From assembly GCA_964537715.1 (NCBI GenBank), contig CAZIAH010000004.1, positions 7,587 through 71,586 on the forward strand: a stretch of 64,000 nucleotides of DNA. The letters run 5' to 3'. Below, one piece after another: positions 12,320 through 35,382 of the stretch. The notes under the pieces are model-generated. The model was not told where the DNA came from, searched no databases, and saw only the letters and a list, made by a program, of their open reading frames with translations. The stretch is from an uncultured bacterium. GTDB taxonomy: Bacteria; Zhuqueibacterota; QNDG01; DSAB01. The number at the start of each line of letters is the position of its first letter. Within the stretch, counting starts at the first letter, position 1. The translations under genes were made by a program, and so were the position numbers.

Positions 12320-14275
12320 TTAATCTAACACTTCCCGAAGTGTTCTTAATAATCCCCCCAAATCATAGGGCTTTTGCAGAAATTCAAACCCCCGTTTTTT
12401 AATCAGCGGCCACTGAGATTTTTTATCCGTATACCCGCTGGCCAAAAGAATCTTAATCTGTGGTTTTTCCGAAAGTATTTGATCCACCAGTTCGATTCCG
12501 TTCCCATCGGGCAAAACAACATCGCTGAACAGCAATTCAAAATCGCCCTTTTTCGACGAAAAAATCTGCTTTGCCTCTTCAACGTTCGCAGCGGTTAATA
12601 TTTTATATCCATTCTTGGCCAAAGCTTTTCGGGTAAACGATCGTACCATTTCTTCATCTTCCACAACTAAAATTCGCTCCCCTTTTCCCTTCGGAAATCT
12701 TTTCCCGGCCGTTTCGAGATCGGACTGTTTTTCTTTGTCAAAAACAGCCGGTAGATAAATTTTAAAAATCGAACCCTCTCCCGGTTCGCTGTACACATGA
12801 ATCCATCCATTGTGCTGTTTGATAATCCCGTATATGACAGACAATCCCAGTCCCGTTCCTTTGCCGACACCTTTTGTTGTAAAAAAGGGTTCAAAAATAT
12901 GTCGGATAGTCTCCGCATTCATGCCGATACCGGTATCGGAAATGGAAAAGCAGACAAATTCACCCGCTTTGGCTTCAGGAATCATCTGGGCCGACAGTTT
13001 ATCCAAAACGATATTCTCTGTCTTCAGTGTTAATTTACCACCTTCCGACATCGCGTCTCTTGCATTCACAACCAGATTCATAATTACCTGTTCCATGGAT
13101 CCCCGGTCGGCATTGACATTCCACAAATCCGGTTCAAAATCGATGCTGATACCTATATCCTCTCCGATCAATCTGTGAAAGATTTTCAACAGATTTTCGA
13201 TGTGAAGATTGAGATCGATCAAATCATATTTCAGGGGCTGTTTGCGGCCGAACAGAAGCAGCTGTCGGGTCAGATCCGCGGCTCTCCCTGAAGCGCTCTG
13301 GATTTCCTGAAGATCACGATATACCACATGGGATTTGTCGATCTCAAGCATGGCCACATCGGCACATCCCTGTATGGCCGTCAGCAGATTATTGAAATCG
13401 TGGGCAATTCCTCCGGCAAGAATGCCGATAGCCTCCATTTTTTGCGCCTGAAGAAGTTCAGACTGGGCTTTTTCTTTCTCTCTTTCTGCCCGCTTTCTCT
13501 CGGCGATCTGCTTTTGCAATTTTTGAGTGCGTTCCCGCACCCTCTTCTCAAGTTCCTCCTGATCTTTGATCAAAGCTTGATCTCTTGCCTGTATTTCAGA
13601 AAGCATTTCATTGAATCCATCAATCAGCAAACCCAGTTCATCATTGCTTTCTTTCCTGGCTCGCAGAGAATAATCCTTTTCTGTGGATACCTTTTTTGCT
13701 ATCCCGACCAGATTCAAGATCGGTTCCGAAATAATATGCTGGAGAGCCGACGTGGCCAGATAGATAAAAAGAAGTGAGAGCAGTAATACGACAAAAACAA
13801 TGCCGGCATACTGTTTCAAGCGTGCGTTCATTTCCAAAAGATCGTACTGAAGAATGACCTTACCGATATTCTCGTCTTCCAACATAATCGGATGGAGGAC
13901 ATATAAAAACTCATTTTGGAAATAAGCTTGATACGTATTCATTTGTTCGGGCAACTTGTACTCACTTTTTTGACGAATGTAGCTGGCAAACAGGATATTG
14001 TTTGGTTTAAAAATGAATGCGGCCACGATATGTTCTTTATATTTCAAAGCAGAGAGGATTTCTTCGGCAGCCAGCGGATCATCAAAAGCCAGAGCAGCTG
14101 TACTGTTGTTTCCAATAATTTCCGCCAGAATGGTCAGTTCGTTGATCATCGTATGACGGGACATTTTCACTTCATACCAGATAAACGAGGCCGAGGCCAG
14201 GAGCAGGGCAATGATACTGATCAACATGATGATCAACGTCAATTTATATTTGATCGATCTATCCCTGAATCTCAT
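12320..14275 (-). CDS. hybrid sensor histidine kinase (2TM periplasmic sensor-HAMP-coiled coil-HisKA-HATPase-REC)
   Basis: H-box 'IAHDFNNLLTAIQG', G-boxes 'DTGIGM' and 'GTGLGLSV', C-terminal receiver 'ILVVEDEEMVR...LFSDVVLPDGNGIEL...KPYDL'. The start overlaps the stop of the upstream YfiR-like gene. Confidence 0.85.
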   Translation of the reverse strand: MRFRDRSIKYKLTLIIMLISIIALLLASASFIWYEVKMSRHTMINELTILAEIIGNNSTAALAFDDPLAAEEILSALKYKEHIVAAFIFKPNNILFASYIRQKSEYKLPEQMNTYQAYFQNEFLYVLHPIMLEDENIGKVILQYDLLEMNARLKQYAGIVFVVLLLSLLFIYLATSALQHIISEPILNLVGIAKKVSTEKDYSLRARKESNDELGLLIDGFNEMLSEIQARDQALIKDQEELEKRVRERTQKLQKQIAERKRAEREKEKAQSELLQAQKMEAIGILAGGIAHDFNNLLTAIQGCADVAMLEIDKSHVVYRDLQEIQSASGRAADLTRQLLLFGRKQPLKYDLIDLNLHIENLLKIFHRLIGEDIGISIDFEPDLWNVNADRGSMEQVIMNLVVNARDAMSEGGKLTLKTENIVLDKLSAQMIPEAKAGEFVCFSISDTGIGMNAETIRHIFEPFFTTKGVGKGTGLGLSVIYGIIKQHNGWIHVYSEPGEGSIFKIYLPAVFDKEKQSDLETAGKRFPKGKGERILVVEDEEMVRSFTRKALAKNGYKILTAANVEEAKQIFSSKKGDFELLFSDVVLPDGNGIELVDQILSEKPQIKILLASGYTDKKSQWPLIKKRGFEFLQKPYDLGGLLRTLREVLD

Positions 14276-14874
14276 CGCGAACCGCCTCCCACAATCTTTG
14301 CCAGATTTAACAGTTTTGAACTCAATTTCAGCCCGGCGGCCTGTGCTGCATCGACATTGATTTCAAAATGAATCTTATTCGCTTTTCTGATAAAATTGAT
14401 GATTCCACCTTCCCGACTAAAATTTTCCGTATCTCCGACGGTCAGTATACTCGCATGCCGCAGTTTACTGAAAATCATAGCGAGATTTTTTGTTTCAGAA
14501 TCACTGATAAAAAGAATTTGACAGTTATTTATATTATCGAGCCGATCATACCGTTCAATTTCGATTTGCCTGCCGTGTATGTACTTGCCCCGGACTGTAT
14601 TGTCCAAATCGTCTCTGAAAGGATCCTGGCCCAAAATGCCGATGACGATCTGTTTTGAACTGTCCGCAAACACTTTATCAGGCCACTGAACGAATTTGGC
14701 AAATTGATATAGAAATGCGGCCTTGATCTGATATTCGGTGGGCTTGAAAACAGGCATCTCCTGGGCCGAAACCGAATGCACAAACAGGACAGCGATAAAA
14801 AGTAATAAGTGACCTTTTTTTGTCATTGAACCTTTTTTGATTAGCGACTGGATACTCAAAATTTCGTCAACCAA
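14272..14874 (-). CDS. YfiR-like periplasmic protein (DUF4154)
   Basis: Signal peptide plus 'YQIKAAFLYQFAKFVQWP' and 'IVIGILG', the characteristic N-terminal pattern of YfiR/DUF4154. Translationally coupled to the downstream HK. Confidence 0.7.
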   Translation of the reverse strand: MVDEILSIQSLIKKGSMTKKGHLLLFIAVLFVHSVSAQEMPVFKPTEYQIKAAFLYQFAKFVQWPDKVFADSSKQIVIGILGQDPFRDDLDNTVRGKYIHGRQIEIERYDRLDNINNCQILFISDSETKNLAMIFSKLRHASILTVGDTENFSREGGIINFIRKANKIHFEINVDAAQAAGLKLSSKLLNLAKIVGGGSR

Positions 14875-14886
14875 ACCGATTTTAGA

Positions 14887-16827
14887 CTAGAATTCCCATT
14901 TTACCGAACCGTAAATTCCTCTTTGAACTTCAGTCGTAACGAAAGGAATGGAAAGTGTCGAAAACTCTGGATGATGATCATCCGGTAAATTCTGTCCGAC
15001 AATTGAAACCTCCACTCCGGGGAAAAGGCGACACGTCAAACAAATATCTATATTGAAATAATCATCTATGTACATTCTGCTCGTCGATAACTGATCCACA
15101 TACTTTGCCCATACATTCAAATCGAATTGATAGGGCAAATTGATAAAAGCCATAAAGGAAACTTGATGCTCGGGACTTTCTCCTTCAATATCATCATAAT
15201 ACTGGTATTGACTGCCTTCTTTCAGACTGGCATTGATTTTCAGATAAGTATAGGCCGCTCGTAATCGCAGTTTTCTATACGGACTCCAATCAAAAGAACA
15301 TTCGGCCCCATAGGTCTTTGCCCCCCGGTTGTTGGCCGCTTTAAAGGGTTCGAACGATTGCAGTTTATCATACAAATTATAGAAAATAGCAATATCAAAA
15401 TAAAAATTGGCCAGCGGATAATGATGAGATCCCAATTCGAATGCCGTGAGTTCTTCGGAATCAAACGCCCTGTCCCCTTCGATAAAGATCGTCCACATAT
15501 CATGATCGGCGCGGGAAGGTGAGCGAATCGCACGGGAAACGGCTCCCCACAATGCATTCCGATCGTTCGGCTTCCAGATCATCCGCATGTTTGGCTGAAC
15601 TTCAAAACCTGTAAAATCATTATGCTCAAATTTTGATCCGATGATCAACTTTAAAAATTCATCGCGGATTTTCCATTCTTCCTGTACAAACGCACTGTAC
15701 AGATCGTATTGGCGATTCGGAGGATCAAACATGACAATTGCAGAGTTCTCCATTTTATCCTTTGTCAGCCGATATTCAAGACCCCATACAACGCTGTGTC
15801 TTGGATGAATCTGAAACCGGTGTTGAAAATCGACATCAAACGTATGGTATCCGCCGCCGATAAAATTTTTCTCGATTCGTTCCACCCGATCATAATAAAA
15901 CTGTAGTGCAAAATCGGACTGCTCGGAATAAATATGTTTCCAGCTTCCCAGTATATTGCCGCCGTAAAATTTAGTATAGTAGGGATCAAACGTGGTCACG
16001 ACAATCTTTGTACCTGCTTTCCCATTATAAATATCTCCCTGCAGCTTGAAGAAATTGGACTCCGATTGATCCCAATCCATTCGAAAACCGCCTCTCAATG
16101 CATCCCAGTCATCAAAAGCTTCTTTCCCCGATGCATCGACATAGCTGTCCCGTTTGAAATATTTACCATACATGCGATAATACACATGTTTCCCGATTTG
16201 TCCGCCATAACGGAAATGGGCAAACTGCTTTTCATCGGTTCCGATACCTGTGACCAACAGTCCGCCCTGGGTCTCACGGACATTTTTTGAAATTACATTA
16301 ATAATACCGTTTACGGCATTCGCTCCCCACAAAGTGGCTCCGGGACCGCGAATAACTTCGATATGATCCAAATCCTCCAAAAACATGTCCTGTGCTTCCC
16401 AAAACACACCCGAAAACAGGGGAGAGTATACACTCCTGCCGTCTATCAAAACCAGCAGTTTGTTGGCAAAAAGACTGTTAAATCCCCGGGAACTGATTGC
16501 CCATTTGTTCGCATCCAGTTTGCCGACCTGAAATCCAGGAACCATGCGCAGCGCTTCTGCAATCGTGGTCACACCTGAATGTTCAATCTCATCACAAGTG
16601 ATTACGGAAATGGCCGCGGCCACATCGGAAACTTTTTCGGTCTTTCTGGAAGCCAGACTGACTTCGATATTCATCAATTCCTCGAGACTCAACTCCGTCA
16701 AATCGACAGATTCAACCTGAGCGATCCCGGTTGTAACAACCATAAACAACAAGAAAAAAAAGCATTTTTGCTTGATTATCTCCATCTGCTTTCTCCATTT
16801 AAAATTCCGCCTCTCCGCCTGAATCAT
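14887..16827 (-). CDS. TonB-dependent receptor (plug + 22-strand barrel)
   Basis: Signal peptide, plug-like region with 'DEIEHSGVTTIAEALRMVPGF' and 'LIDGRSVYSP', C-terminal aromatic terminus 'GSVKWEF'. Confidence 0.8.
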   Translation of the reverse strand: MIQAERRNFKWRKQMEIIKQKCFFFLLFMVVTTGIAQVESVDLTELSLEELMNIEVSLASRKTEKVSDVAAAISVITCDEIEHSGVTTIAEALRMVPGFQVGKLDANKWAISSRGFNSLFANKLLVLIDGRSVYSPLFSGVFWEAQDMFLEDLDHIEVIRGPGATLWGANAVNGIINVISKNVRETQGGLLVTGIGTDEKQFAHFRYGGQIGKHVYYRMYGKYFKRDSYVDASGKEAFDDWDALRGGFRMDWDQSESNFFKLQGDIYNGKAGTKIVVTTFDPYYTKFYGGNILGSWKHIYSEQSDFALQFYYDRVERIEKNFIGGGYHTFDVDFQHRFQIHPRHSVVWGLEYRLTKDKMENSAIVMFDPPNRQYDLYSAFVQEEWKIRDEFLKLIIGSKFEHNDFTGFEVQPNMRMIWKPNDRNALWGAVSRAIRSPSRADHDMWTIFIEGDRAFDSEELTAFELGSHHYPLANFYFDIAIFYNLYDKLQSFEPFKAANNRGAKTYGAECSFDWSPYRKLRLRAAYTYLKINASLKEGSQYQYYDDIEGESPEHQVSFMAFINLPYQFDLNVWAKYVDQLSTSRMYIDDYFNIDICLTCRLFPGVEVSIVGQNLPDDHHPEFSTLSIPFVTTEVQRGIYGSVKWEF

Positions 16828-17000
16828 GCACTAAAAACATCTTAAAACATGTTCTCAAGCAGCGCAAATAACATGCCAATGGTCTAATTGTTTATGATAT
16901 ATTAAATTCTTGTTAAACCAAACGCTTAGAAAAGAAGTTTTTATAAAAGGACAACTATTATCTGGAACATTTTTTCAAAATGAAATGCGATAGAAGGATA

Positions 17001-17040
17001 ATATTTTAGACAATTAATCCCGATCCATCGGGACAAACCC
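17001..17040 (-). terminator. candidate intrinsic terminator downstream of the second hybrid HK (hairpins CCCGGAAAGCCGGG and CCCGATGGATCGGG on the minus strand)
   Basis: Read directly. The first hairpin is followed by TTTGT. Confidence 0.35.
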
Positions 17041-17058
17041 GGCTTTCCGGGAGGAAGG

Positions 17059-19023
17059 TTAATCGCTGCGTTTTTTCTGACTCAAATCAATTGCTGTCCG
17101 TACCGAACGTAATAAATCGGTCAAAGTGTATGGTTTCTGCAGGAAATAAAAACCCTTGTCTCGTATCAACGGCCACTGTGATTTGTGATCCGTATAACCG
17201 CTCGTTAAAAGAATTTGGACATTGGAATGGATTTTCAGCATTTCTTCCACCAGTTCGATACCGCTTTTATCGGACAAAACCACGTCGCTGAAAACGAGTC
17301 TAAAATTTCCTTTTTCCTTTTTAAAAATTTCAAGTGCTTCTTTTGCATTCCTGGCAGGAATCACGGAATAGCCGCACTTGTCCAGTGCTTTTAAAGCGGA
17401 CTCGCGAACTTTTTCCTCATCCTCCACAAGAAGAATCCTCTCTTTATTTCCTGTCAAACCCTGAAGAGAAATCTTGCCGTCCACTTCTTTCTCAGGTTTT
17501 CCGGCCGAAGCGGGAAGGTAGACACTAAACTCGGATCCTTCGCCCAGTGTACTGTTCATTGAAATCCAGCCTTCGTGCTCTTTGACAATACCGTAGACAA
17601 CGGACAGTCCCAATCCGGTTCCCTCTCCGGGACCTTTGGTCGTAAAGAAAGGTTCAAAAATACGTTCGAATATTTTTTTATCGATGCCGATACCGGTATC
17701 CCGAATGGAAAGACAAACAAAATCGCCAGGACGGGATTCCGGCAGTTGTTTATTCGTATCCCGGGTTAAAGTTTTGTTTTCAGTTTTTATGACCAATTTC
17801 CCACCATCAGGCATGGCGTCCCTGGAATTGAGAGCCAGATTCATGATGACCTGCTCGATATTCCCGGCGTCGGCTTTGACCGACCAGAGTTCTGGATCGA
17901 GATCCGTGCGAATCTCGATATTTTCACCGATCAACCGCTGAAACATTTTCAGAAGATTTTCAATCGAATCGTTCAGGCTGAACGAAGTAAATTCCATGGG
18001 ATGCTTCCGGCTGAAAAGCAGCAACTGCCGGATCAATCCGGAGGCCCGCATGGCCGCGAGTCGGATCTCCTTCAAATCCTTGTGCAAAACATTGTCTTCT
18101 TCGAGTCGCATCATGGCGACATCCGAACTCACCTGAATGGCTGTCATCAAATTATTGAAATCATGGGCCACACCTCCGGCCAGTGTGCCGATCGCCTCCA
18201 TTTTCTGGGCCTGAAACAGCTGTGCCCGAATCTTTTCCTTTTCTTTTTCCGCATTTTTTCTTTCAGTGACATCATGCACGTTGCACTGAATCAGTTTGCG
18301 GTTATCCATATTATAGCTGTTGCATGTAAGTTCGATATCGATTTCCTTGCCGTCTTTCCTTTTCAGCACCAGGTGATCATGATGGATATAGGCTTCTTCT
18401 TCGGACTCGTCGAACAAATCATCGAGCAAGGATGGATCATTGAGCACTCCAATATCGACAAGTGTTTTGCACAAAACCTGGTTTCGTTTTACTCCTAACA
18501 ACTCCAGCATAAAGGGATTGACATCTCGAATTTCTCCTGTTTCCGTATCCAGGAGCAGAATACCTTCCTTGGCCGATTCGAACAGCCGCCGGTACCTCGC
18601 TTCGGAAGCCAACAATGCCTCCTCGGCACATTTTTTCTCTTTCATGGCCTGCGATTTTTCAACAGCGCTTCTCACTGCGGGACCCAGATGGCCCAGGCGG
18701 TCTTTCAAAACATAATCGACTGCGCCCGCTTTCATACATTCGACGGCGGTCTCTTCATTGATCGCTCCCGTAACGATGATCAATGGAGTCTCTGGAGACG
18801 CTTTCTTGACCAGTTCAAGTGCGCTCATCCCGTCAAATTTGGGCAGGGAGTAATCGGCAAGAACGAGATCCGGTTTTAAAGTTTCGATAGCTGTTATGAA
18901 ATCTTCACGGTTGGCCACTCTTTTCGAAACGAATTTGAACTTGGCATCCATCAACTCGTTTTCCATTAAGAGTGCATCGGATTTCATATCTTCCAATATC
19001 AGGATGCGAAGTTTGTCATCCAT
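17059..19023 (-). CDS. hybrid sensor histidine kinase with N- and C-terminal receiver domains (REC-PAS-HisKA-HATPase-REC)
   Basis: N-terminal REC 'ILILEDMKSDALL...LVLADYSLPKFDGMS', PAS-like middle, H-box 'VAHDFNNLMTAIQ', 'GTGLGLSVVYG', C-terminal REC. The HisKA-to-REC portion is clearly paralogous to the HK at 12320-14275. Confidence 0.85.
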   Translation of the reverse strand: MDDKLRILILEDMKSDALLMENELMDAKFKFVSKRVANREDFITAIETLKPDLVLADYSLPKFDGMSALELVKKASPETPLIIVTGAINEETAVECMKAGAVDYVLKDRLGHLGPAVRSAVEKSQAMKEKKCAEEALLASEARYRRLFESAKEGILLLDTETGEIRDVNPFMLELLGVKRNQVLCKTLVDIGVLNDPSLLDDLFDESEEEAYIHHDHLVLKRKDGKEIDIELTCNSYNMDNRKLIQCNVHDVTERKNAEKEKEKIRAQLFQAQKMEAIGTLAGGVAHDFNNLMTAIQVSSDVAMMRLEEDNVLHKDLKEIRLAAMRASGLIRQLLLFSRKHPMEFTSFSLNDSIENLLKMFQRLIGENIEIRTDLDPELWSVKADAGNIEQVIMNLALNSRDAMPDGGKLVIKTENKTLTRDTNKQLPESRPGDFVCLSIRDTGIGIDKKIFERIFEPFFTTKGPGEGTGLGLSVVYGIVKEHEGWISMNSTLGEGSEFSVYLPASAGKPEKEVDGKISLQGLTGNKERILLVEDEEKVRESALKALDKCGYSVIPARNAKEALEIFKKEKGNFRLVFSDVVLSDKSGIELVEEMLKIHSNVQILLTSGYTDHKSQWPLIRDKGFYFLQKPYTLTDLLRSVRTAIDLSQKKRSD

Positions 19024-25582: not shown

Positions 25583-26659
25583 TCAGATCTCAATTAACTG
25601 ATATTCAGATTGACCCAACCCAATTGATTCTCCGTGCCGGATTTGAATCCGCGCGTCCAATTTGGGATAACTCATGTCCGTGAGCATCAGGTTTTTACGA
25701 TTGTTTTTCCGAATAAGATCCAGGCTGGCCGCATCGATGGCCACCGGATCTTTGCTCGCCAAGATACCGATGTCCGGCATGAGCGGTCTTTGATTCGTAT
25801 CAAAACAATCGCAGTCTTTGGTGATCGAAGTCAGAAAATTGAAACACCCAAATTTCTCCGGTTTTTGCGAGACGACACCGAGGGCATGTTCGGCAATCCG
25901 CTTCTGTAGTTCCGTTGAATTCACATTCCAGTCGTGCTTGACCGCATCGAAACGGCAAACCGCAATACACTCACCGCAGCCGATACATTTTTGATCGTCA
26001 ATCACAGCCGTTTTATTGTCCATGGAAATAGCGTCCGCAGGACACCACCGGATGCAGACGCCACAGCCCGTACAATATTGTTCGGAAATATTCGGATTCA
26101 TGCCGGCATGCTGCCTGAGTTTTCCCTTGCGGCTGGCAAATCCCATTCCCAGATTCTTGATGGTTCCGCCGAGTCCTGTGCTCAGATGTCCCGTCACATG
26201 GGTCATGGCAACAATCGCATTGGATTCCAGCGCGATTTTCGCCAGCGAGACCTGATTAAAAAGTTTCCCATGAATGGATACCTCACCTTCCCCGCTTCCC
26301 AAAAGCCCGTCGGCAATCACAACCGGTGCACCCGTATTCTCAATCGTAAAGCCATGCGCCTGCGCCAGATGCAGATGCGTCACCGCATCGTTTCGCTCGC
26401 TCCGGTAAAGCACATTGGTATCCGTGAGAAACGGCTTTCCCTTGTTCTTTTTGATGGCCTCGACCACCGGCCGCACGAACCCCGGAGCAATGTGTGTCGT
26501 ATTCCCCTTTTCTCCGAAATGGATCTTGATCGCCACCAGATCGTTTTCGCCCACACAATCCCCGATCCCGGCGCTTTCGAAAAGGGATTTGATTTTACTG
26601 ACAACGACCTGAGAGCTGTCTTTGTTTTTTACCCTCACAAAATAAACATCCGAACCCAA
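25583..26659 (-). CDS. DUF362-family iron-sulfur protein with 2x[4Fe-4S] ferredoxin insert
   Basis: N-terminus typical of DUF362 (VYFVRVKN...VAIKIHFGEKGNTTHI...RPVVEAIKK) and 'CTGCGVCIRWCPADAI...CIGCGECIAVC' cysteine motifs. Confidence 0.7.
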   Translation of the reverse strand: MGSDVYFVRVKNKDSSQVVVSKIKSLFESAGIGDCVGENDLVAIKIHFGEKGNTTHIAPGFVRPVVEAIKKNKGKPFLTDTNVLYRSERNDAVTHLHLAQAHGFTIENTGAPVVIADGLLGSGEGEVSIHGKLFNQVSLAKIALESNAIVAMTHVTGHLSTGLGGTIKNLGMGFASRKGKLRQHAGMNPNISEQYCTGCGVCIRWCPADAISMDNKTAVIDDQKCIGCGECIAVCRFDAVKHDWNVNSTELQKRIAEHALGVVSQKPEKFGCFNFLTSITKDCDCFDTNQRPLMPDIGILASKDPVAIDAASLDLIRKNNRKNLMLTDMSYPKLDARIQIRHGESIGLGQSEYQLIEI

Positions 26660-26722
26660 ACAACCTCCGGAGAAATTGGATGACTCATTCCCATAAAACT
26701 GCTTATTTTTTCAGCTATTAAT

Positions 26723-26804
26723 GTATTAATAAATCGGCACAAATGCAACATCCGCCGAACTGTGGATGATGAAATTTTATGGTAGGAGAATAAAATAGAT
26801 TATG
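26723..26804. repeat. intergenic modular repeat, Y-module copy 1 (tattaataaatcggcacaaatgcaacatccgccgaactgtggatgatgaaattttatgg...)
   Basis: About 88% identical to 28709-28784. Contains the hairpin CATCC-N10-GGATG. Confidence 0.75.
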
Positions 26805-26838
26805 GTCATTCCAAGGTTCTACTCTGGAACGGACTATA
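26803..26838. repeat. 35-bp direct repeat W1 (tcattccaaggttctactctggaacggactata), partner at 27887-27924
   Basis: 33 of 35 positions identical between the copies. The two copies bracket the Fib_succ_major gene. Confidence 0.75.
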
Positions 26839-26856
26839 TTTTTATATGCCCGCGTT

Positions 26857-27849
26857 TTAATCACGAACAAGACGGACAGAAAAGCCAAAATATTTTGTGT
26901 AATAGTTACGACCCAATGTTGCACTTTCGGAAGATAATACTCTATACCAAGCTTCTTCATTCAGGTACTCAGTAGATGACCAGAAATTGGTACAGCTTCC
27001 TAAAAAGCTAAAGTACATAAAATAGCGACCTCCGCCAGGAAGTGCTGTGAATCCGCTTTCGTTTGTAGCCCCAAAGTTTGGCTGTTGCCAATGAATAAAT
27101 CCTGCTTCCTTTAATTTACCTCCTTCTTTAAACCCTCGTGATCCTATATAATCTAATTCTGTCGGACTTATACCCAAATATATTTCTAACTCTTTCCATT
27201 CATCATCATTTGGAACATGCCAGCCTTCAGGTGTTAATCCTCGTGAATCATCCACTGTATACCAGTTATACAAAAAACCGTAAGTGTCAGCATTGCTCTC
27301 TTCATTATTAAAAGCACAATAAGCACCGGTTGTTAGTCCAGACCATAAAGTGCTATCTATTACATTAGGTATTGGGTCACCATTTCGGTAATGTGTCACT
27401 TTGAGATTTTCGGCTGTCCACCATTGCTCACCGATTTTGATCGTTTTATATATATTGCCGTCTATGTCACTTACCGATCCTGTTTCAAATGATTTAATTT
27501 GAAAAGACCAAATTTCAGACCAAATACTCCAATTCCCCTGATTGTCTCCTGCACGTACACGCCAGTAATACACTCCGAGATTTAATGTACCTGTGGTACA
27601 TTCAGTACTTTGTACCAGTATAACACTAAATTCTGGATTGATAAAATCGTTTGAATCATCCACAACTACTTCATACTTATTAGCATCTTCAACATCAATC
27701 CAACGTAGCGTCGGCGTAATTATAGCTGTTACTTCCTCATTTGTCGGACGGTCCAATGTTGGTCGTTCTAGATTATTTTCAGGTTCTGTACTTTTTTTAA
27801 CACAACTGATAGAAATAGTCAGAAGAAGAAATATGTACCACTTTTTCAT
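26857..27849 (-). CDS. Fibrobacter succinogenes major paralogous domain (Fib_succ_major/TIGR02145-like) lipoprotein
   Basis: Lipoprotein signal MKKWYIFLLLTISISC, followed by 'GEQWWTAENLKVTHYRNGDPIP...WSGLTTGAYCAFNN...YGFLYNWY...PEGWHVPNDDEWKELE...GFTALPGGGRY...FWSS'. All of these are signature elements of that paralogous family. Confidence 0.8.
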   Translation of the reverse strand: MKKWYIFLLLTISISCVKKSTEPENNLERPTLDRPTNEEVTAIITPTLRWIDVEDANKYEVVVDDSNDFINPEFSVILVQSTECTTGTLNLGVYYWRVRAGDNQGNWSIWSEIWSFQIKSFETGSVSDIDGNIYKTIKIGEQWWTAENLKVTHYRNGDPIPNVIDSTLWSGLTTGAYCAFNNEESNADTYGFLYNWYTVDDSRGLTPEGWHVPNDDEWKELEIYLGISPTELDYIGSRGFKEGGKLKEAGFIHWQQPNFGATNESGFTALPGGGRYFMYFSFLGSCTNFWSSTEYLNEEAWYRVLSSESATLGRNYYTKYFGFSVRLVRD

Positions 27850-27886
27850 CGTAATTCCCTCCTATTACCTTATCAATGTTATCCTT

Positions 27887-27924
27887 GATCATTCCAAGGT
27901 TTTACCCTGGAACGGACTATAACG
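27887..27924. repeat. 35-bp direct repeat W2
   Basis: See W1. Confidence 0.75.
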
Positions 27925-28065
27925 GAGGATTGAACCTTCTTTTCGATCCCACAAAGGTCAGATCGAAATCTTTGCGTCCCGGTGAAGAACCACAAGACGG
28001 TCTGAGAGTATTCTAATAAAAGAAAAAACATGGAAGGCGTATTCATTACCAAACCAAGATTAAGA

Positions 28066-28640: not shown

Positions 28641-28784
28641 GCTGCCGGAGGTGTTTCTCACCTTCGGCTATTATTCGACAAGGAAAAAACTCCCCGCCAC
28701 GCAGGAATATATTAATAAATTGGCACAAAAGCAACATCCGCCGAACAGTGGATGAGGAAATTTTATGGCAGGAACAATATGATG
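28641..28784. repeat. intergenic modular repeat, Z-module + Y-module (copy 2 of each)
   Basis: Z part (gtgtttctcaccttcggctattattcgacaaggaaaaaactccccgccacgcaggaata) matches 35452-35530. Y part matches 26723-26804. Confidence 0.75.
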
Positions 28785-28825: not shown

Positions 28826-31800
28826 CTACTGACTATATTCCATAACATGATTAAAATACTCTATAAACTCAACCTCATTCAATTTATAGTTAAATATTTT
28901 TGCAATCAGATTTTTATAGTCATTATAATTACTTTCTGGTAATAAGACTTTAAGATTATCTAAGTATTCTTCTATTTTGATTTTGAATTCATTCACCAAT
29001 TCAGATAACCATTCTTTATCAATTTCATTTCCAGAACTTAGCCACCTTCGACATTCAATCAATTTCCATAATTCTAAAAATAATTTCATTAAATTAGTAG
29101 TAAGAATATTCGGTTTCATCTCTTTTAATTCCACTCCTTCTAGTGTTTCTAACATTTCTGCAGTTAATTCAATTGGAAGTGGTTGTTCTTCATCATCAAT
29201 TTTAATATTTTCTCCATCTATGATTTTTTTCATCTTTACTAGAAGTGCGTTGTTAATCCTTATTGCTCTCTCACATTTTTTATCATCTTCAACGAAAACA
29301 ATAATGATGAAATTGACATTTATTTCCGATAAATCAACTAAGCTATATATAATTTTAGGAAATTCATCAGCTAAACGAGAAAATTCAACTCCCGATATTC
29401 CAATTACTATCTTCTTTAATATTCCTTCCTCAATTATTTTTTTTGGCATTAATGTTTTAAAGGATGTTTCTTTTTCAAATTTTTTTAGAACAATATATAT
29501 TTTATCAAGCCGTTTAGAGAGTAATTCTTGCCACCATTTTTCAACTACTGTTTTTGCATTAGTAGTAGCAATTGCACTTTCTTGATTATTTATATAATAT
29601 GAAATAGTTTTAAAAGCACGGTCATACCAAATTACTTCTTCATTTTCCATTTCGTCAGGATGAAAATATTTAAAAGTACTCTCAGAAATAAATCTGAATG
29701 CCTGCTGCATTTTATACAGGTTATTCTTAGTATTTAATAAATTTATTATTGCCAGATTTTGATCTTTATTATTTTGGGGTATTATTACATTACTAATTTG
29801 ATGAACAAAATTCCGTAGTGAATCAGCCCATTCATTTATTTTACCACAATTCTTCGCAAATTTCGTTTCCTCTACTTGCACATCATTCGAATTTGGTAAA
29901 TCTTTACATGTTATGAGAGCTTTCGATAAAACTAAAATGTTCTCATTTATAAATTTGCTAATAGATTTTATTCTGCTATGATTTTTTTCTATTAGAGCTT
30001 CAAAAAGTCTATTACAATCTTTTATAAATTCAAGGGATTTCTTTCTTATATAGATCCACTGTTTCTGCCAATCATAAACTGATGATGATTCATACCTTGA
30101 CATTAAAACTTTAACCCAGATGCTATTTATCTGAGCGTGGAATAGTGGATCTATGTTTTGTTGTGGCATTCGCTTAATTGAAGTATTAAGAACATTTGAA
30201 AATAATTCTTTGCCAGGAAAAGGAGGGATTATAGCTTCAGTACAATATAATTTATAAAATGGTAAAAAAGCATAAATAGCGAATATTCTATTTACACTTT
30301 CATCATTTGCTTTTTCAATATTCTCATATAATAAATAGTTGATTTTGATATTATTATGATCTTCTTCAATATTCAGTGTATTGGTTTTACGTTTTAGCCA
30401 ACTAATAATTTCATCTTTATGTTTTTTCACTATCTTATAATACTCTTTTGGTTGATTGGAATGATATGCATATGCCAGTTTGCATGAATCTTTAATTTCT
30501 GAAAATTTTAAAGAATTTAGAATAATTCTTCTGGATATCTTATTAATTAAGGGGCAATGTAATTGAAATTTATCAAACCATTGGATTAAATGCCCCAAAC
30601 CTTCGCACTCAATATTAATTTCTTTCTTTTCTAACTGTGTCTGTAATGATCTTAAAAAAATAAAAATATCATAATCTTTTGGGTTATAACTTTGTATCTC
30701 ATTTAATTTCTGCAAAAGATATTTTGGATTCTGACTTTCAGGTACAATCCCAACTAACTTCTTTATAGTATTTAATTTTATCCAAGGACAGCTGTCAGAG
30801 GCGACTAATAACAGACCTCCATGTTCAAATACATCATCATATATTTCTCTATTACTTTCCCAATGTTTTATAACAGTACAAGAAAAAATACCTTCAATTG
30901 ATTTTACAAGTTCAAAATAAGATTTCTGAGCAAGAAAAATAGCAATATTCTCGTAAAAATACGTTTTCCCTGTATCTGTAATTAGTAATGGTGCTTTAAA
31001 ACAAAAATCATAAATATATTCTTTTTCAATCAATGGTAGCAAATTGATCAAAGAGTTTGCTACTGGAATATTTGAATGAAGAAGATCAGACAAATGAGAC
31101 GAGCGTACCGGGTGTAATCCTTCCACATAGACTTTATCCAATTTAATATAATATTCATTTTCCAAACTCTTTATAACTTCATTTCTATCAGAAATAACCC
31201 CAATATTTTTTTGAATGGTTTCAATTAAATTTTGACTAGATAATTTAATATTACATATATCCGCGAGGGTAACCATTCTTAAAATTTCAATTTTTGCCGC
31301 CCCATCTTCTTCCTCATTAAGATTTTTAATTTGTTTTGTGAGTCTTTCTTTGAGCATTTCGCCAAAGGTTAAAAGATAAATGAACTCAATTAATAATCCT
31401 TTCTCTTTTACTTTTTCCCAAGCAGATTGCCAATTATCAATCGATCTATGCAATTTCCTATTTTGCCTAAATTGGGTAAAAATGTCCTGAGCTTCCTTAC
31501 ATGACATATGGATATTTAGGCAACCTAAGCTAAGCCGAGATGCATCTCCACCATATCTGTACCAATCTTCTTCTCTAGAAGTAATCATAAACTTCACGGG
31601 TAGATTATAACATCTTTCGGCTAATATTGACCATTTAGAAACTGCTTGTGTTAAACCATCTACGACAATTATAGGACTTTCGCCTATATTTATTTTAGCA
31701 ACTATAAATGAAATAATAGCCCCAAGCTTATCTTCATCAGAACACCAATTCAATTCATATAAACTATATCCTGTTTCTAACAATTTTTTACCTACTTGCC

Positions 31801-32815
31801 AAACCAAAGTTGATTTACCTTGTCCACTTGAGGATTTTATAACAGTAATATCAAAATCTTTAAAATAATTTTCTATTTTTTCTTCCCAATTTATACGTTT
31901 TACTGGTAAACCTTTTGCGATATGAATTGGTCGTGCTGATTTCCCCTCGTAATAATCTTTTACATCTATAGTTACATCTTTATTGAATGATACTCTAGAA
32001 ATCCATTTATTTTGAATTGCAGGATTTATCACACCTTTTGCAATATCTTCCCGGACAGTCTCAATAACTGAATTTAAATCATCGAATCTAATCGTTTCAC
32101 GATCTCTTGACCATTTAAATATTGAATAAAATAATGCTCTTAAATATTGATGTTCATTTTCTACATTTAGCTGTAAATTTTCTATAAGATGTTTAATACA
32201 TTTATTCTCAATATCAGGTTCTGAGAGTTTCTCAAATTTTATAGCTGACAAAAATTTTTCTAAATCAAAATCATTCCAATTCCAAATTCTTGCTTTATCA
32301 GAAACTTTGAAATCTTCAATTTTTCTATGCCAATATTTTAAACTTTTTTCAGATATATCATATGTAGAAAGATCATGTAAATAGCCATCGGTAATATCCA
32401 TATTATGAACAAAGCGGAACTTTACATTGGTAATTTGTAAATAAACTTCAAGGAAATTTTGAAGAATCCCTTTACTCCAGAAAGTAAAAGAATCTAATTT
32501 ATTTTCTGAATATTTGACTTGTATAAACTCATATTCCTTAGAAGCATTTAGATGAATTTTGATTAAATCTATGTCTTCAATTCCTTCTAGACGAATTTTT
32601 CTTTCTTTTTTTGTAACATCCAGAAAATCTAGAGTTTTCCACATTGCATAGTTTAATTGAAATCCAATTCCTTTTAAATTTACAGATCCTCCAGTTCTCC
32701 TTTTTAGAAGCACTTCCACAGGATACAAATTTTGTTGATTATCATCCATATTCTTTTGAATATTTGAACTTGAAATCAACGATTTCTTTGATTCTTTTTT
32801 CTTTCTTTTCGACAT
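28826..32815 (-). CDS. large STAND-class P-loop NTPase (NB-ARC/NACHT-like) with N-terminal PD-(D/E)xK-like putative nuclease effector and ~900-aa alpha-helical C-terminal region; candidate antiphage defence protein (Avs/AVAST-like architecture)
   Basis: 1329 aa, very AT-rich (Lys/Asn/Ile/Glu-rich). Walker A 'SSSGQGKST', Walker B 'PIIVVDGL', 'VKFMITSRE' (hhhhTSR sensor motif), 'LSLGCLNIHMSCKEAQDIF' (RNBS-C-like L..L...EA..hF). N-terminal 'GIGFQLNYAMW...IRLEGIEDIDLI...EFIQVKYSE' resembles a D...(E/Q)xK restriction-endonuclease-like core. The C-terminus is long and helical with no catalytic motif. Confidence 0.6.
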   Translation of the reverse strand: MSKRKKKESKKSLISSSNIQKNMDDNQQNLYPVEVLLKRRTGGSVNLKGIGFQLNYAMWKTLDFLDVTKKERKIRLEGIEDIDLIKIHLNASKEYEFIQVKYSENKLDSFTFWSKGILQNFLEVYLQITNVKFRFVHNMDITDGYLHDLSTYDISEKSLKYWHRKIEDFKVSDKARIWNWNDFDLEKFLSAIKFEKLSEPDIENKCIKHLIENLQLNVENEHQYLRALFYSIFKWSRDRETIRFDDLNSVIETVREDIAKGVINPAIQNKWISRVSFNKDVTIDVKDYYEGKSARPIHIAKGLPVKRINWEEKIENYFKDFDITVIKSSSGQGKSTLVWQVGKKLLETGYSLYELNWCSDEDKLGAIISFIVAKINIGESPIIVVDGLTQAVSKWSILAERCYNLPVKFMITSREEDWYRYGGDASRLSLGCLNIHMSCKEAQDIFTQFRQNRKLHRSIDNWQSAWEKVKEKGLLIEFIYLLTFGEMLKERLTKQIKNLNEEEDGAAKIEILRMVTLADICNIKLSSQNLIETIQKNIGVISDRNEVIKSLENEYYIKLDKVYVEGLHPVRSSHLSDLLHSNIPVANSLINLLPLIEKEYIYDFCFKAPLLITDTGKTYFYENIAIFLAQKSYFELVKSIEGIFSCTVIKHWESNREIYDDVFEHGGLLLVASDSCPWIKLNTIKKLVGIVPESQNPKYLLQKLNEIQSYNPKDYDIFIFLRSLQTQLEKKEINIECEGLGHLIQWFDKFQLHCPLINKISRRIILNSLKFSEIKDSCKLAYAYHSNQPKEYYKIVKKHKDEIISWLKRKTNTLNIEEDHNNIKINYLLYENIEKANDESVNRIFAIYAFLPFYKLYCTEAIIPPFPGKELFSNVLNTSIKRMPQQNIDPLFHAQINSIWVKVLMSRYESSSVYDWQKQWIYIRKKSLEFIKDCNRLFEALIEKNHSRIKSISKFINENILVLSKALITCKDLPNSNDVQVEETKFAKNCGKINEWADSLRNFVHQISNVIIPQNNKDQNLAIINLLNTKNNLYKMQQAFRFISESTFKYFHPDEMENEEVIWYDRAFKTISYYINNQESAIATTNAKTVVEKWWQELLSKRLDKIYIVLKKFEKETSFKTLMPKKIIEEGILKKIVIGISGVEFSRLADEFPKIIYSLVDLSEINVNFIIIVFVEDDKKCERAIRINNALLVKMKKIIDGENIKIDDEEQPLPIELTAEMLETLEGVELKEMKPNILTTNLMKLFLELWKLIECRRWLSSGNEIDKEWLSELVNEFKIKIEEYLDNLKVLLPESNYNDYKNLIAKIFNYKLNEVEFIEYFNHVMEYSQ

Positions 32816-33017
32816 TATGAAAAATATCCGTCTCTTTCAGAAATAAAATTCCTAAAAGAAAGTAATTTGTTGGTATCAGAAAGGAGTAAGGACAACGGTG
32901 TAGCAGAAATATAAAGTAAAGATAAATCTAATTCAAGTGAAAAACTGTTGTTCGACTGCTTTGATTTCGTCAAAGTTCTGCCTTGGTGCGATCAAAATAC
33001 GATTCTTACCACTTACA

Positions 33018-33237
33018 AAATTATTTTTCACTCTTACAAAACGATTTTTCCCTCTTGCAGAATGATTTTTACCCCATGACGAACGATTTTACCCTGATGA
33101 AAAATGATTTTACCCCCATGAAAAATGATTTCACCCTGATGATATATGATTTCACCCTGATGATATATGATTTCACCCCGATGAAAACTCATTTTACCCT
33201 GATGACGAATGATTTCTTTCCGACGCGGAACGATTGA
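33018..33237. repeat. tandem array of ~10 imperfect 21-bp direct repeats (consensus ~ RAATGATTTYACCCYGATGAW)
   Basis: Read directly. Units are contiguous with no spacers. Lies ~175-420 bp upstream of the start of the STAND NTPase gene and just downstream of the oxidoreductase gene. It artefactually creates an 84-aa repetitive ORF. Confidence 0.85.
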
Positions 33238-34864: not shown

Positions 34865-35131
34865 CTACACGTAATGAGTCCACATACGAATCACTTTAAT
34901 CGTTTTCTTTTCTTGAATGATTTGATAGATAATACGGTGCTGTATATTAATTCGGCGTGAATATGCACCTGTGAGATCACCGACAAGTTTCTCGTAGGGA
35001 GGAGGTGCTTGATAAGGATCTTCCTTTAATAATTCCAGGATTGCAAGTGGTTTTTCCCTTAATCCTGAATTGCTTAACTTTTTTGCGTCCTTTTGTGCCT
35101 GTTTTGTATATACGATTTTCCATTTCACCAA
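34865..35131 (-). CDS. yoeB: type II toxin YoeB/Txe (RelE superfamily)
   Basis: 88 aa. 'YSRRINIQHRIIYQI...IKVIRMWTHY' matches the YoeB C-terminal catalytic region. Overlaps the upstream antitoxin gene. Confidence 0.8.
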   Translation of the reverse strand: MVKWKIVYTKQAQKDAKKLSNSGLREKPLAILELLKEDPYQAPPPYEKLVGDLTGAYSRRINIQHRIIYQIIQEKKTIKVIRMWTHYV

Positions 35132-35382
35132 TCAAGCTCCTCGGAACATTCTTCAATGGGCGTTTTAAGACCCTCTTGAATGGATTCACGCATACCGGGA
35201 ATAGAGAGAAGAAAAAGCGTCTCCTGGATTGCAGACCAATCCTCTTCTGAAACTAAAACCACATTCGACCTTTTACCGGTAATTTGAATGGGTTCATGAC
35301 TTGTTGAAGCTTCGTCTATGAGTTTATATAATTGTGATCGAGCATTGGTTACAGTTATCGTTTTCATTGTTTTGCCTTTCAT
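35125..35382 (-). CDS. yefM: type II antitoxin YefM/Phd family
   Basis: 85 aa. 'ITVTNARSQLYKLIDEA...EPIQITGKRSNVVLVSEEDWSAIQETLFLLS' is the classic Phd/YefM fold sequence. Confidence 0.8.
   Translation of the reverse strand: MKGKTMKTITVTNARSQLYKLIDEASTSHEPIQITGKRSNVVLVSEEDWSAIQETLFLLSIPGMRESIQEGLKTPIEECSEELDW

Follow-up and report, generated by a model that had tools for sequence, protein, structure and literature searches.

An AT-rich gene of foreign composition encodes a probable Avs-type receptor-nuclease with a non-TPR sensor

Within the 64,000-nucleotide stretch of DNA analyzed here (the window), a KSB1-like chromosome segment, one giant open reading frame stands apart from its flanks, which raises the question of what its product does and where the gene came from. 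The original prediction read it as a foreign, AT-biased gene for an undescribed Avs-like protein and left undecided whether that protein belongs to a named Avs family. The frame proved to be intact rather than a degraded pseudogene: it is open across all 3,990 bases, the window protein keeps all 80+ columns that are invariant in family alignments, and homologues span 93 to 99% of its length. A Logan run yielded the identical sequence in an independent assembly. The NCBI annotation of the protein begins at M23 and gives 1307 aa (P0001); we prefer the 1329-aa start because the Logan call and the N termini of homologues fit it. The gene has 28.1% GC against 46.1% for the remaining window, with values of 27 to 32% along its length and ~45 to 55% in the flanks, so the foreign composition seen earlier holds. 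It is best explained as a foreign gene that arrived recently through horizontal transfer.

Table 1. Features of the gene and its surroundings, in window positions (aa, residues of the 1329-aa protein)
Feature	Position	Strand	Evidence or remark
Complete single gene, 1329 aa + stop, ATG start	28826..32815	-	ORF list and translation
Lys-rich disordered N-terminal tail, aa 1-31, with alternative start M23	32723..32815	-	pLDDT below 50 at aa 1-28
Cap4/DUF4297-type PD-(D/E)xK nuclease, aa ~32-262, predicted effector	32030..32722	-	profile and fold matches in family
Predicted active-site block E77-G-x-E80-D81-x-D83 ... Q99-x-K101	32513..32587	-	alignments
STAND nucleotide-binding domain, aa ~301-432, Pfam class nSTAND5	31520..31915	-	profile and fold
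Walker A S329-S-G-Q-G-K334-S-T336	31808..31831	-	alignments
Walker B P381-IIVV-D386-G387-L388	31652..31675	-	D386 and G387 invariant
hhhhTSR sensor-1 motif T412-S-R414-E-E-D417-W418	31562..31582	-	alignments
Helical domain of NOD module, aa ~433-522, with E441-A442 block	31250..31519	-	modeled helices 439-520
Winged-helix domain, aa ~523-600	31016..31249	-	model: helix-strand-strand-helix at 544-579
C-terminal sensor, aa ~601-1329 (~730 aa)	28829..31015	-	helical segments, long-helix bundle, two alpha/beta subdomains
Conserved alpha/beta module within sensor, aa 811-925	30041..30385	-	conservation and model
YoeB/YefM toxin-antitoxin pair	34865-35382	-	~2 kb from gene
21-bp tandem array, ~10 copies, locus-specific	32999-33216		directly upstream of gene
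Terminator-like hairpin with T-run	28691..28707	-	~120 bp past stop codon; consensus scan, weak

The tail at the N terminus is poorly conserved (family identity, 19 to 21%, with zero invariant columns) and is followed by the predicted effector. The Pfam profile Cap4_nuclease (PF14130) matched 16 of 36 family members (best E, 5e-11) and was not reached by the window protein alone at E<=1. PADLOC matches to family members were limited to Cap4-type effector models (LmuA, CBASS endonuclease effector, HamA, and DUF4297). In Foldseek, the domain matched the Cap4 structures 6vm5, 6wan, and 6vm6 and HerA-DUF4297 (9c1m), with E values from 1e-6 to 7e-6. Residues E77, G78, E80, D81, D83, Q99, and K101 are invariant in the 51-, 70-, and 36-sequence alignments, and the PD-(D/E)xK pattern predicts that this block is catalytic. 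The invariant columns, Cap4 profile matches in the family, and Cap4 folds together bear out the earlier comparison of a D...(Q)xK pattern here with PD-(D/E)xK or Cap4-like nucleases.

The next region, at aa ~300 to 600, is an NTPase of Pfam class nSTAND5. This model (PF25199) matched 36 of 36 family members and nSTAND3 (PF20720) matched 33; in the window protein, PF25199 aligned to aa 287 to 423 with 31.2 bits, short of the gathering score of 34. The motifs of the original prediction are all present on invariant or nearly invariant columns. Walker A is invariant in the 51- and 36-sequence alignments, with S335 at least 90% conserved in the 70-sequence alignment. At sensor-1 (FMITSRE), R414, D417, and W418 are invariant and T412 is invariant or at least 90% conserved. 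The RNBS-C-like block (L..L....EA..IF) corresponds to E441-A442 in the helical domain, which is the best-conserved segment of the protein (53% mean pairwise identity, 13 invariant columns). The columns of the winged-helix motif E-G566-L-H568-P-V-R571-S572-x-H574 are also invariant, and H568 may be the WHD histidine that contacts ADP in other STANDs, as His545 does in SeAvs7 (PMC13581612). The profile search gave nSTAND5 and nSTAND3 instead of a non-STAND housekeeping P-loop, and these were the only NTPase families matched; neither is NB-ARC or NACHT, so the NB-ARC label given earlier does not apply. A model of the N-terminal half (pLDDT 84) found its best Foldseek matches in EfAvs5, Avs4, SAMD9, Cap4, NLRP14, and HerA-DUF4297, and the top folds for the NTPase domain were EfAvs5 (9jap; E, 2.3e-10) and Avs4 (8dgf; E, 2.5e-9).

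The effector-STAND-sensor layout proposed earlier is thus supported, but the protein does not belong to a named Avs family in any test run (PADLOC, PDB sequence, and fold searches); the PADLOC AVAST and Dsr models matched neither it nor its family. Gao et al. reportedly described Avs3 (AVAST type 3) in 2022 as a Cap4-nuclease-STAND-TPR antiviral protein. Avs3 and Avs7 both have this architecture and are proven sensors of phage proteins that cleave dsDNA (Lee et al. 2026, PMC13581612). Like them, the window protein joins a Cap4/DUF4297-type nuclease, a STAND NTPase, and a large C-terminal sensor in one polypeptide, has intact Walker A, Walker B, and sensor-1 motifs, and constitutes a single-gene system. 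Their working principle, in which ligand-induced, ATP-dependent oligomerization activates a dsDNA nuclease, is likely common to all three. Unlike them, it has a sensor with no TPR solenoid, and PADLOC AVAST/Dsr and PDB sequence searches detected no relationship. Its sensor also lacks a structural match to solved Avs sensors, although the fold library may be older than the Avs7 entries 9N00, 9N01, and 9YIX. Taxonomically, the window family occurs in Bacteroidota, Bacillota, and archaea, whereas the Avs3 and Avs7 representatives studied so far are mostly from Proteobacteria.

Among solved structures, the NOD module comes closest in fold to Avs5 (SIR2-nSTAND3-sensor) and the SAMD9/Avs9 lineage (EfAvs5 as above, the AVAST5 filament 9nc9, and SAMD9 9zjw), and it is the Avs5 NTPase model, nSTAND3 (PMC12931631), that also matches most of the window family. 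However, their effector is SIR2 or AlbA_2 rather than a Cap4 nuclease, the best Pfam model for the window family is nSTAND5, SAMD9 and Avs5 structures do not match the window sensor, and PADLOC AVAST V gave no match. Cap4 (CBASS effector), LmuA (Lamassu), and HerA-DUF4297 have the nuclease family PF14130 in common with the window family, but control there lies with a SAVED/CARF domain, an SMC-like partner, or a separately encoded HerA ATPase, whereas the window nuclease shares one polypeptide with a STAND NTPase and a sensor and has no conserved partner gene. PF25199 itself is a domain model only, for a computationally defined clade of conflict-system NTPases, and is silent on sensor, trigger, and function; other nSTAND5 proteins (Acaryochloris, Sphingopyxis, Agrobacterium plasmids) match the window protein in its nuclease and/or NTPase region but not in its sensor.

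On this evidence, the protein is probably an antiviral receptor-nuclease of the Avs type (NLR-like) that works alone, its gene recently acquired horizontally. This central reading of the original prediction is supported by Pfam, PADLOC, the folds, and a patchy spread linked to mobile elements and defense genes; the defensive role itself is argued by analogy. Modeled on the solved Avs3, Avs4, and Avs7 systems, the nSTAND5 NTPase would be ADP-bound at rest, with the C-terminal sensor keeping the protein closed. Autoinhibition would be released when the sensor binds a ligand from the phage, most likely one of its conserved proteins, and ATP binding at K334/D386 would lead to oligomerization. The Cap4-type domains thus brought together would cut dsDNA indiscriminately via D81/D83 and Q99-x-K101, causing abortive infection. 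Several points count against this reading: the sub-threshold nSTAND5 score (31.2 versus 34), the Cap4_nuclease profile that the window protein does not reach, the lack of a full-length model in PADLOC, NCBIfam, or PHROGs, the lack of a defense island in the window and around many homologues, a promoter scan at chance level, an effector that is constant across the family where some Avs families swap theirs, and a non-TPR sensor with a conserved module.

The last of these points bears on the trigger. The sensor was modeled confidently, and a fold search found no global match to it among solved structures. It had been described as TPR-like and motif-free; instead, no TPR match to the window protein was found at E<=1 in Pfam, and the model shows long-helix bundles and two alpha/beta subdomains. 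In the module at aa 811 to 925, pairwise identity averages 45% and 11 columns are invariant (T811, Y827, S840, Y857, K881, N897, W900, Y908, W916, Q917, and R924), versus 25 to 31% and 0 to 3 in each other sensor segment. It is modeled as beta-hairpin/alpha/beta/alpha/beta/alpha (model residues 254 to 347). The sensor is confined to ~1300-aa proteins, in which it begins at residue ~575 to 630. Such a module would not be predicted by a fast-evolving protein-recognition surface. It may, on the same chassis, sense a small molecule, a nucleotide-derived signal, a nucleic acid structure, or a host factor, i.e., infection state rather than viral protein shape, which we regard as unlikely but the most serious alternative. 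Its invariants are mostly polar or aromatic (T, S, K, N, Q, R, Y, W), the sensor has neither TPR-type repeats nor a match to solved Avs sensors, and the constancy of effector and architecture across distant phyla and archaea would fit a universal ligand. However, many of the invariants are aromatic, so the module could just as well be conserved as a structural core or as a surface that holds the NOD module in an inhibited state, and sequence and fold searches detected no known ligand-binding fold in the sensor. Moreover, every Avs family with a known trigger senses phage proteins (PMC13581612).

The full-length family is rare, with ~250 clusters in 1.84 billion representatives and relatives in 176 of 185,579 species genomes (~0.1%), occurring patchily in Bacteroidota, Bacillota, Campylobacterota, and two archaea. 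Across 80 genome loci, no neighbor family recurs beyond mobile-element genes. Large serine recombinases flank 15 of these loci and tyrosine integrases 5, and ICE-type genes (DUF932, RadC, SSB) recur at six. Gabija adjoins three members, each from a different genus, Wadjet three Ferruginibacter/Chitinophagaceae members, and MmeI-type R-M three, one of them on a Hymenobacter plasmid; AbiV, AIPR, RES, and AlbA_2 genes also lie near members, and five IMG/VR viral contigs encode one. The recombinases, integrases, and ICE-type genes, together with members on a plasmid and predicted viral contigs, could mean that the host's defense against lytic phage is not its main role and that the protein chiefly serves its carrier elements, whether by competing with other elements, by keeping out rival plasmids, ICEs, or prophages, or by post-segregational addiction. 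We think this improbable: genuine defense systems are normally carried by mobile elements too, neither a recombinase nor an element gene borders the gene in the window or several of its homologues, and the idea overlaps mechanistically with an antiviral receptor-nuclease. The context in the window had been called defense-island-like, but the neighbors are housekeeping genes plus a single toxin-antitoxin pair. That pair and the upstream tandem array were both found as predicted, whereas the supposed flanking intergenic repeats are just short chance-level matches in AT-rich DNA. Many homologues are likewise surrounded by housekeeping genes.

The gene could also be a passenger that does not function or is silent, through xenogeneic silencing or plain lack of expression, with no working system at this locus. 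The 18-point GC gap is extreme, larger than at all 80 related loci; a promoter scan gave only chance-level matches and no convincing promoter for the gene; and the KSB1-like host phylum is missing from the best 80 genome loci with the family. We give this little credence, as an intact frame has persisted in AT-rich DNA, where stops arise easily, all family-invariant residues are kept, and the identical sequence was assembled independently. The hairpin past the stop codon comes from a terminator scan that returned 3 sites versus 1.7 expected.

Finally, it is very improbable that this is a non-immune STAND protein, such as a housekeeping ATPase or a regulator of signaling or transcription, with an N-terminal domain that does not work as a nuclease. 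In favor of this reading, defense and non-defense STAND clades are interspersed (PMC13581612) and Pfam evidence for the window protein is sub-threshold, but the protein showed no HTH or other output domain, the PD-(D/E)xK residues are invariant rather than lost in most members, Cap4-type effector models match the family, no conserved regulon lies beside the gene, and the patchy, horizontal-transfer-type distribution is incompatible with housekeeping.

The family resembles known Avs proteins in general kind but is itself rare and without an existing full-length model, none being present in PADLOC (2023), NCBIfam, or PHROGs. Its members are publicly annotated as "Novel STAND NTPase 5 domain-containing protein," "P-loop NTPase," or "dsDNA nuclease domain-containing protein."

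The window protein, the 1329-aa product of the AT-rich gene that opens the table below, belongs to a so far uncharacterised, Avs-like family of nuclease-STAND proteins. On the strength of profile matches of its homologues and of fold matches, we read its N-terminal two-fifths as a Cap4-type nuclease followed, in the same chain, by a STAND NOD module (NBD, helical domain, and winged-helix domain). The window protein itself gave no match to Cap4_nuclease (PF14130) at E ≤ 1; this model matched 16 of 36 homologues, with a best E value of 5e-11. PADLOC matches of the same 36 members were to Cap4-type effector models only (LmuA, 11/36; CBASS endonuclease effector, 6/36; DUF4297, 2/36; and also HamA) and never to AVAST or Dsr. 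The D...QxK pattern that had suggested a nuclease is present as E77-G-x-E80-D81-x-D83 and Q99-x-K101, with E77, E80, D81, D83, Q99, and K101 all invariant. By Foldseek, the predicted nuclease domain matched Cap4 (6vm5, 6wan, 6wam, and 6vm6) and HerA-DUF4297 (9c1m) at E values of 1e-6 to 2e-5, and we assign it to the PD-(D/E)xK fold as a predicted nuclease.

STAND NTPases are defined by a Walker A motif (GxxxxGK[ST]), a Walker B motif (hhhhD), and a sensor-1 arginine in hhhhTSR/TTR after strand 4. Each of these had been read from the sequence by eye and each was found: the Walker motifs as S329-SGQGK334ST and IIVVD386G(L), invariant in alignments of 36 to 70 full-length homologues, and the third as FMIT412SR414EEDW, with R414 invariant. 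The RNBS-C-like block is also present, with E441-A442 on invariant or nearly invariant columns. Among Pfam models, the window protein matched only nSTAND_NTPase5 (nSTAND5, PF25199; aa 287-423, E = 2.3e-7, 31.2 bits against a curated gathering score of 34), and NCBIfam and PADLOC 2023, searched with this protein alone, gave no match. nSTAND5 matched 36/36 homologues at E ≤ 0.01 (best, 1.4e-11), and nSTAND3 matched 33/36 more weakly (best, 6e-7). The NB-ARC label of the original prediction has to be dropped, as neither the window protein (E ≤ 1) nor the 36 members (E ≤ 0.01) matched NB-ARC (PF00931) or NACHT. In an AlphaFold2 (AF2) model of aa 1-640 (pLDDT 84), an alpha/beta nuclease domain leads into a P-loop NBD, after which come a helical domain, bundled at 439-520, and a winged-helix unit, in which residues 544-579 run helix/strand/strand/helix. 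Two histidines, H568 and H574, are invariant within an EGLHPVRSxH motif, and a winged-helix-domain histidine in this region would contact ADP. The solved structures that best matched the model were EfAvs5 (E = 2.3e-10) and Avs4 (E = 2.5e-9), with further matches to SAMD9, CBASS Cap4, NLRP14, the AVAST5 filament, and HerA-DUF4297. Judged by this predicted fold, the nearest characterised relative of the NOD module is the Avs5/SAMD9 lineage.

AF2 models, fold matches, and homologue profiles together bear out the predicted Avs-like effector-STAND-sensor layout under a broad definition of Avs, namely, one polypeptide that carries a defence-type effector, a STAND NTPase, and a sensor no shorter than 400 aa, which is how Lee et al. 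(PMC13581612) delimit defence-associated clades. Membership in a named family was considered and rejected, there being no full-length or sensor match in PADLOC, NCBIfam, PHROGs, or the PDB (phmmer and profile searches against solved chains). For Avs1-Avs4, the PADLOC AVAST models matched neither the window protein nor the 36 homologues, and Avs4 (8dgf) fits the N-terminal half only, the sensor model having no match at E < 0.1. Avs5 combines a SIR2 NADase effector with an NTPase of the Pfam nSTAND3 type (PMC12931631), whereas the window protein, although its NOD resembles Avs5/SAMD9, has a Cap4-type effector, gave no SIR2 match, and fits nSTAND5 best. With Avs3 and Avs7 it has in common a Cap4-STAND-sensor layout and, by analogy, probably a way of working. 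The TPR sensor of Avs7 is homologous to that of Dsr1, however, and the 36 members gave no match to Dsr1 or any other PADLOC sensor model, nor did the window protein match a TPR model in Pfam; Avs7 is possibly absent from the fold library that we compared. At the domain level there is precedent: Pfam already describes the NTPase as nSTAND5, and "dsDNA nuclease domain-containing protein" is how some relatives are annotated, entries from Paraflavitalea and Desulfonema limicola among them. The family may well be among the 589 STAND clades surveyed by Lee et al. in 2026, of which 198 were defence associated and which came with 684 sensor structural clusters (PMC13581612). The experimentally tested Avs7-24 representatives are all from Proteobacteria (PMC13581612), and no member of the family is among them.

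The C-terminal sensor (aa ~601-1329) had been described as a motif-free, TPR-like region, and neither half of that description stands. A confident model of aa 560-1329 (pLDDT 89.7, pTM 0.83) consists of two alpha/beta subdomains, six long helices that form a bundle, and further helical segments rather than of a TPR solenoid, and TPR is absent from the Pfam matches. The first alpha/beta subdomain (aa 811-925) has 11 invariant columns (T811, Y827, S840, Y857, K881, N897, W900, Y908, W916, Q917, and R924) and, at 45% mean pairwise identity, is an outlier in a sensor that is mostly at 25 to 31%; the corresponding values are 47 to 53% for the NOD module and 40% for the nuclease. Foldseek of the sensor model against the PDB gave a best match of E = 0.14, PDB profile and sequence searches returned P-loop noise only, and PHROGs gave no match to the sensor, which leaves it without a counterpart in solved structures or in the family models of Pfam, NCBIfam, PADLOC 2023, and PHROGs. 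Used on its own as the query against 1.84 billion cluster representatives, the sensor retrieved 250 proteins, 100 of them at E ≤ 1e-30. Since these are essentially all ~1300 aa long, with the match beginning at residue ~575-630, the sensor is private to the family and the architecture is constant; effector swapping was rejected on the same search, which gave one ~1300-aa architecture throughout. Matches of 900 to 1100 aa begin within the P-loop or shortly ahead of it, as truncated gene calls would. Two members, P0155 and P0157 (1451 and 1467 aa), differ from the others in having an additional C-terminal domain of ~150 aa.

The best-supported explanation, drawn by analogy, is a stand-alone Avs-type receptor-nuclease. 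The protein would rest as an ADP-bound, autoinhibited monomer; an infection-derived ligand would bind the C-terminal region, followed by nucleotide exchange and oligomerisation via the NOD, and the Cap4 domains would then come together as a working dsDNA nuclease, aborting infection. The same mechanism is established for Avs3, Avs4, and Avs7 (PMC13581612). The family displays the corresponding architecture, intact catalytic and NTPase residues, a single-gene organisation, and a matching ecology; all of the dynamic steps, and the trigger, we infer. One rival keeps the same chassis and has the conserved alpha/beta module read a non-protein trigger. On a related reading, the family would be a distinct Avs-like receptor class in which a non-TPR sensor, built on the deeply conserved aa 811-925 module, reads something else than the phage-protein triggers known to date. 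We consider this unlikely; small molecules, nucleic-acid features, and host factors shared by bacteria and archaea would be candidate triggers, and, if true, the reading would account for an architecture that stays constant from Bacteroidota, Bacillota, and Campylobacterota to methanogen-type archaea.

Single-protein STAND receptors (Avs) make up a very large share of prokaryotic immunity, each family reading a different phage feature, and Cap4-nuclease output is proven. The interest of the present family is moderate because proteins of its kind are well established and known to be hugely diverse. It is distinguished by a sensor that lacks precedent in structure and sequence, by an unusually conserved module within that sensor, and by a fixed architecture across bacteria and archaea. 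Its trigger, once found, would add another entry to the map of viral features that bacteria recognise, and the family might reveal a non-TPR way of sensing. Its hosts are for the most part Bacteroidota and Bacillota, along with some archaea, and phage-host biology has been studied far less in these groups than in enterobacteria.

The homologue search gave 363 matches, and the 120 listed among them are nearly all 1270 to 1370 aa long, with 93 to 99% query coverage and 34 to 51% identity. Of 185,579 species genomes, 176 have a relative; most of these are Bacteroidota, followed by Bacillota and Campylobacterota, and two are archaeal MAGs. Members also occur on five IMG/VR contigs and on a complete plasmid of Hymenobacter tibetensis, where the gene is a 1325-aa CDS (WP_243803491.1). 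When the 869 flanking ORFs of the 80 best genome loci bearing a member were clustered, no conserved partner gene emerged, and mobile-element genes alone recurred: large serine recombinases (15/80 loci), tyrosine integrases (5/80), and the ICE-type genes DUF932, RadC, and SSB. A function in competition that serves the mobile element itself is a second rival to defence of the host. A sizeable minority of the loci have recognisable defence systems at distances of up to ~4-5 kb, among them Gabija (beside members of three genera), Wadjet (in a group of three related MAGs), MmeI-type R-M (at three loci), and AbiV, AIPR, RES, and AlbA_2 genes; other members stand amid ordinary genes. Against a published null of 0.0153 per gene (PMC13581612), at least 6 of 80 loci with defence neighbours corresponds to a binomial tail of 1.5e-3, with 48 loci profile scanned and detection not equivalent to DefenseFinder, which is suggestive of enrichment beside known defence systems.

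MmeI/Eco57I-type R-M genes were found at the loci of three unrelated members, namely, a JGI metagenome contig (L003), a Campylobacterales MAG (L015), and the Hymenobacter plasmid (L094), and directly adjoin the STAND gene in two of the three; this may be a recurrent pairing. At a further locus (L095), an IS1-family transposase directly follows the relative, another ORF of 640 aa comes next, and a NACHT-domain gene adjoins. The insertion sequence may have split a family member here, or else a sister nSTAND5 protein.

Features in the window and at related loci
Feature	Position	Strand	Remarks
STAND gene	28826..32815	-	Lone insertion between PEMT-like membrane methyltransferase gene and amine-oxidase-family flavoprotein gene
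84-aa ORF	32983-33237	+	Lies across the tandem array; probably spurious
Tandem array	32999-33216		About ten 21-bp units, consensus GATTTCACCCTGATGAAAAAT, super-periods 42 and 63 bp; between flavoprotein and STAND genes
YoeB/ParE-type toxin	34865-35131	-	Intact type II pair with Phd/YefM
Phd/YefM antitoxin	35125-35382	-	Intact type II pair; overlaps toxin gene
FISUMP lipoprotein	26857-27849	-	Fibrobacter succinogenes major paralogous domain
TonB-dependent receptor and two hybrid histidine kinases	12320-19023	-	Receptor gene between the kinase genes
MmeI/Eco57I-type (type IIL/IIG) R-M gene	L003 2450-5959		Upstream of STAND gene
MmeI/Eco57I-type (type IIL/IIG) R-M gene	L015 173-2608		Upstream of STAND gene
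MmeI/Eco57I-type (type IIL/IIG) R-M gene	L094 1824-4721		Upstream of STAND gene
L095 relative	Acaryochloris marina plasmid pREB4, NC_009929.1 65547-70376		Matches nuclease and NTPase only, aa 33-601, 31% identity

In the window, the STAND gene is real, intact, and horizontally acquired. It has an ATG start and is, as predicted, a single uninterrupted ORF of foreign composition: GC is 27 to 32% over the gene versus ~45 to 55% on both sides (28.1% versus 46.1% for the rest of the window), a wider gap than at any of the 80 related loci. The proposed defence-island-like context was not recovered. The surrounding genes are housekeeping (iPGM, TrmO, FeoB, PolA, TonB-dependent receptors, and histidine kinases), and the only defence-flavoured neighbour is the YoeB/YefM toxin-antitoxin pair, itself confirmed. 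A housekeeping flavoprotein gene stands between this pair and the STAND gene, and GC falls locally to ~38% at the pair. An insertion-scar search found no direct or inverted repeats bracketing the AT-rich segment, the flanking intergenic repeats of the original prediction were likewise not found, and no tRNA, integrase, or transposase adjoins the STAND gene in the window. The predicted upstream tandem array does exist. It occurs once in the window, and where Logan independently assembled this sequence, the assembly breaks at or near it; since comparable upstream arrays occur at only 2/90 related loci, it was rejected as a family feature and as part of the defence system. A third rival holds that the STAND gene is a silent passenger in this host; a promoter scan of the AT-rich DNA was uninformative (27 sites versus 27.5 expected), and the reading frame and its catalytic residues are intact. 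That this is a non-immune STAND protein is very unlikely, its predicted effector being of the Cap4 type. Exact-protein look-ups with the STAND gene product and a neighbour, aimed at an empty site, returned only the same sample; no similar DNA was found in E. coli genomes, and a phage collection gave only a weak match, confined to the NTPase. We regard the STAND gene, which probably encodes a receptor-nuclease, as a clean example of recent single-gene defence acquisition by an apparently KSB1-like uncultured bacterium.

This view of the host comes from the FISUMP lipoprotein and from the iPGM gene, whose best named relatives are from candidate division KSB1 (68 to 73% identity); together, these sequence matches point to an uncultured KSB1-like bacterium. 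The lipoprotein gene sits in a lower-GC stretch (38 to 40%, 26500-28000). Elsewhere in the window, the two hybrid histidine kinases that flank a TonB-dependent receptor gene have the domain orders CHASE8-HAMP-HisKA-HATPase-REC and REC-PAS-HisKA-HATPase, and this group serves ordinary signalling and uptake, unrelated to the STAND gene.
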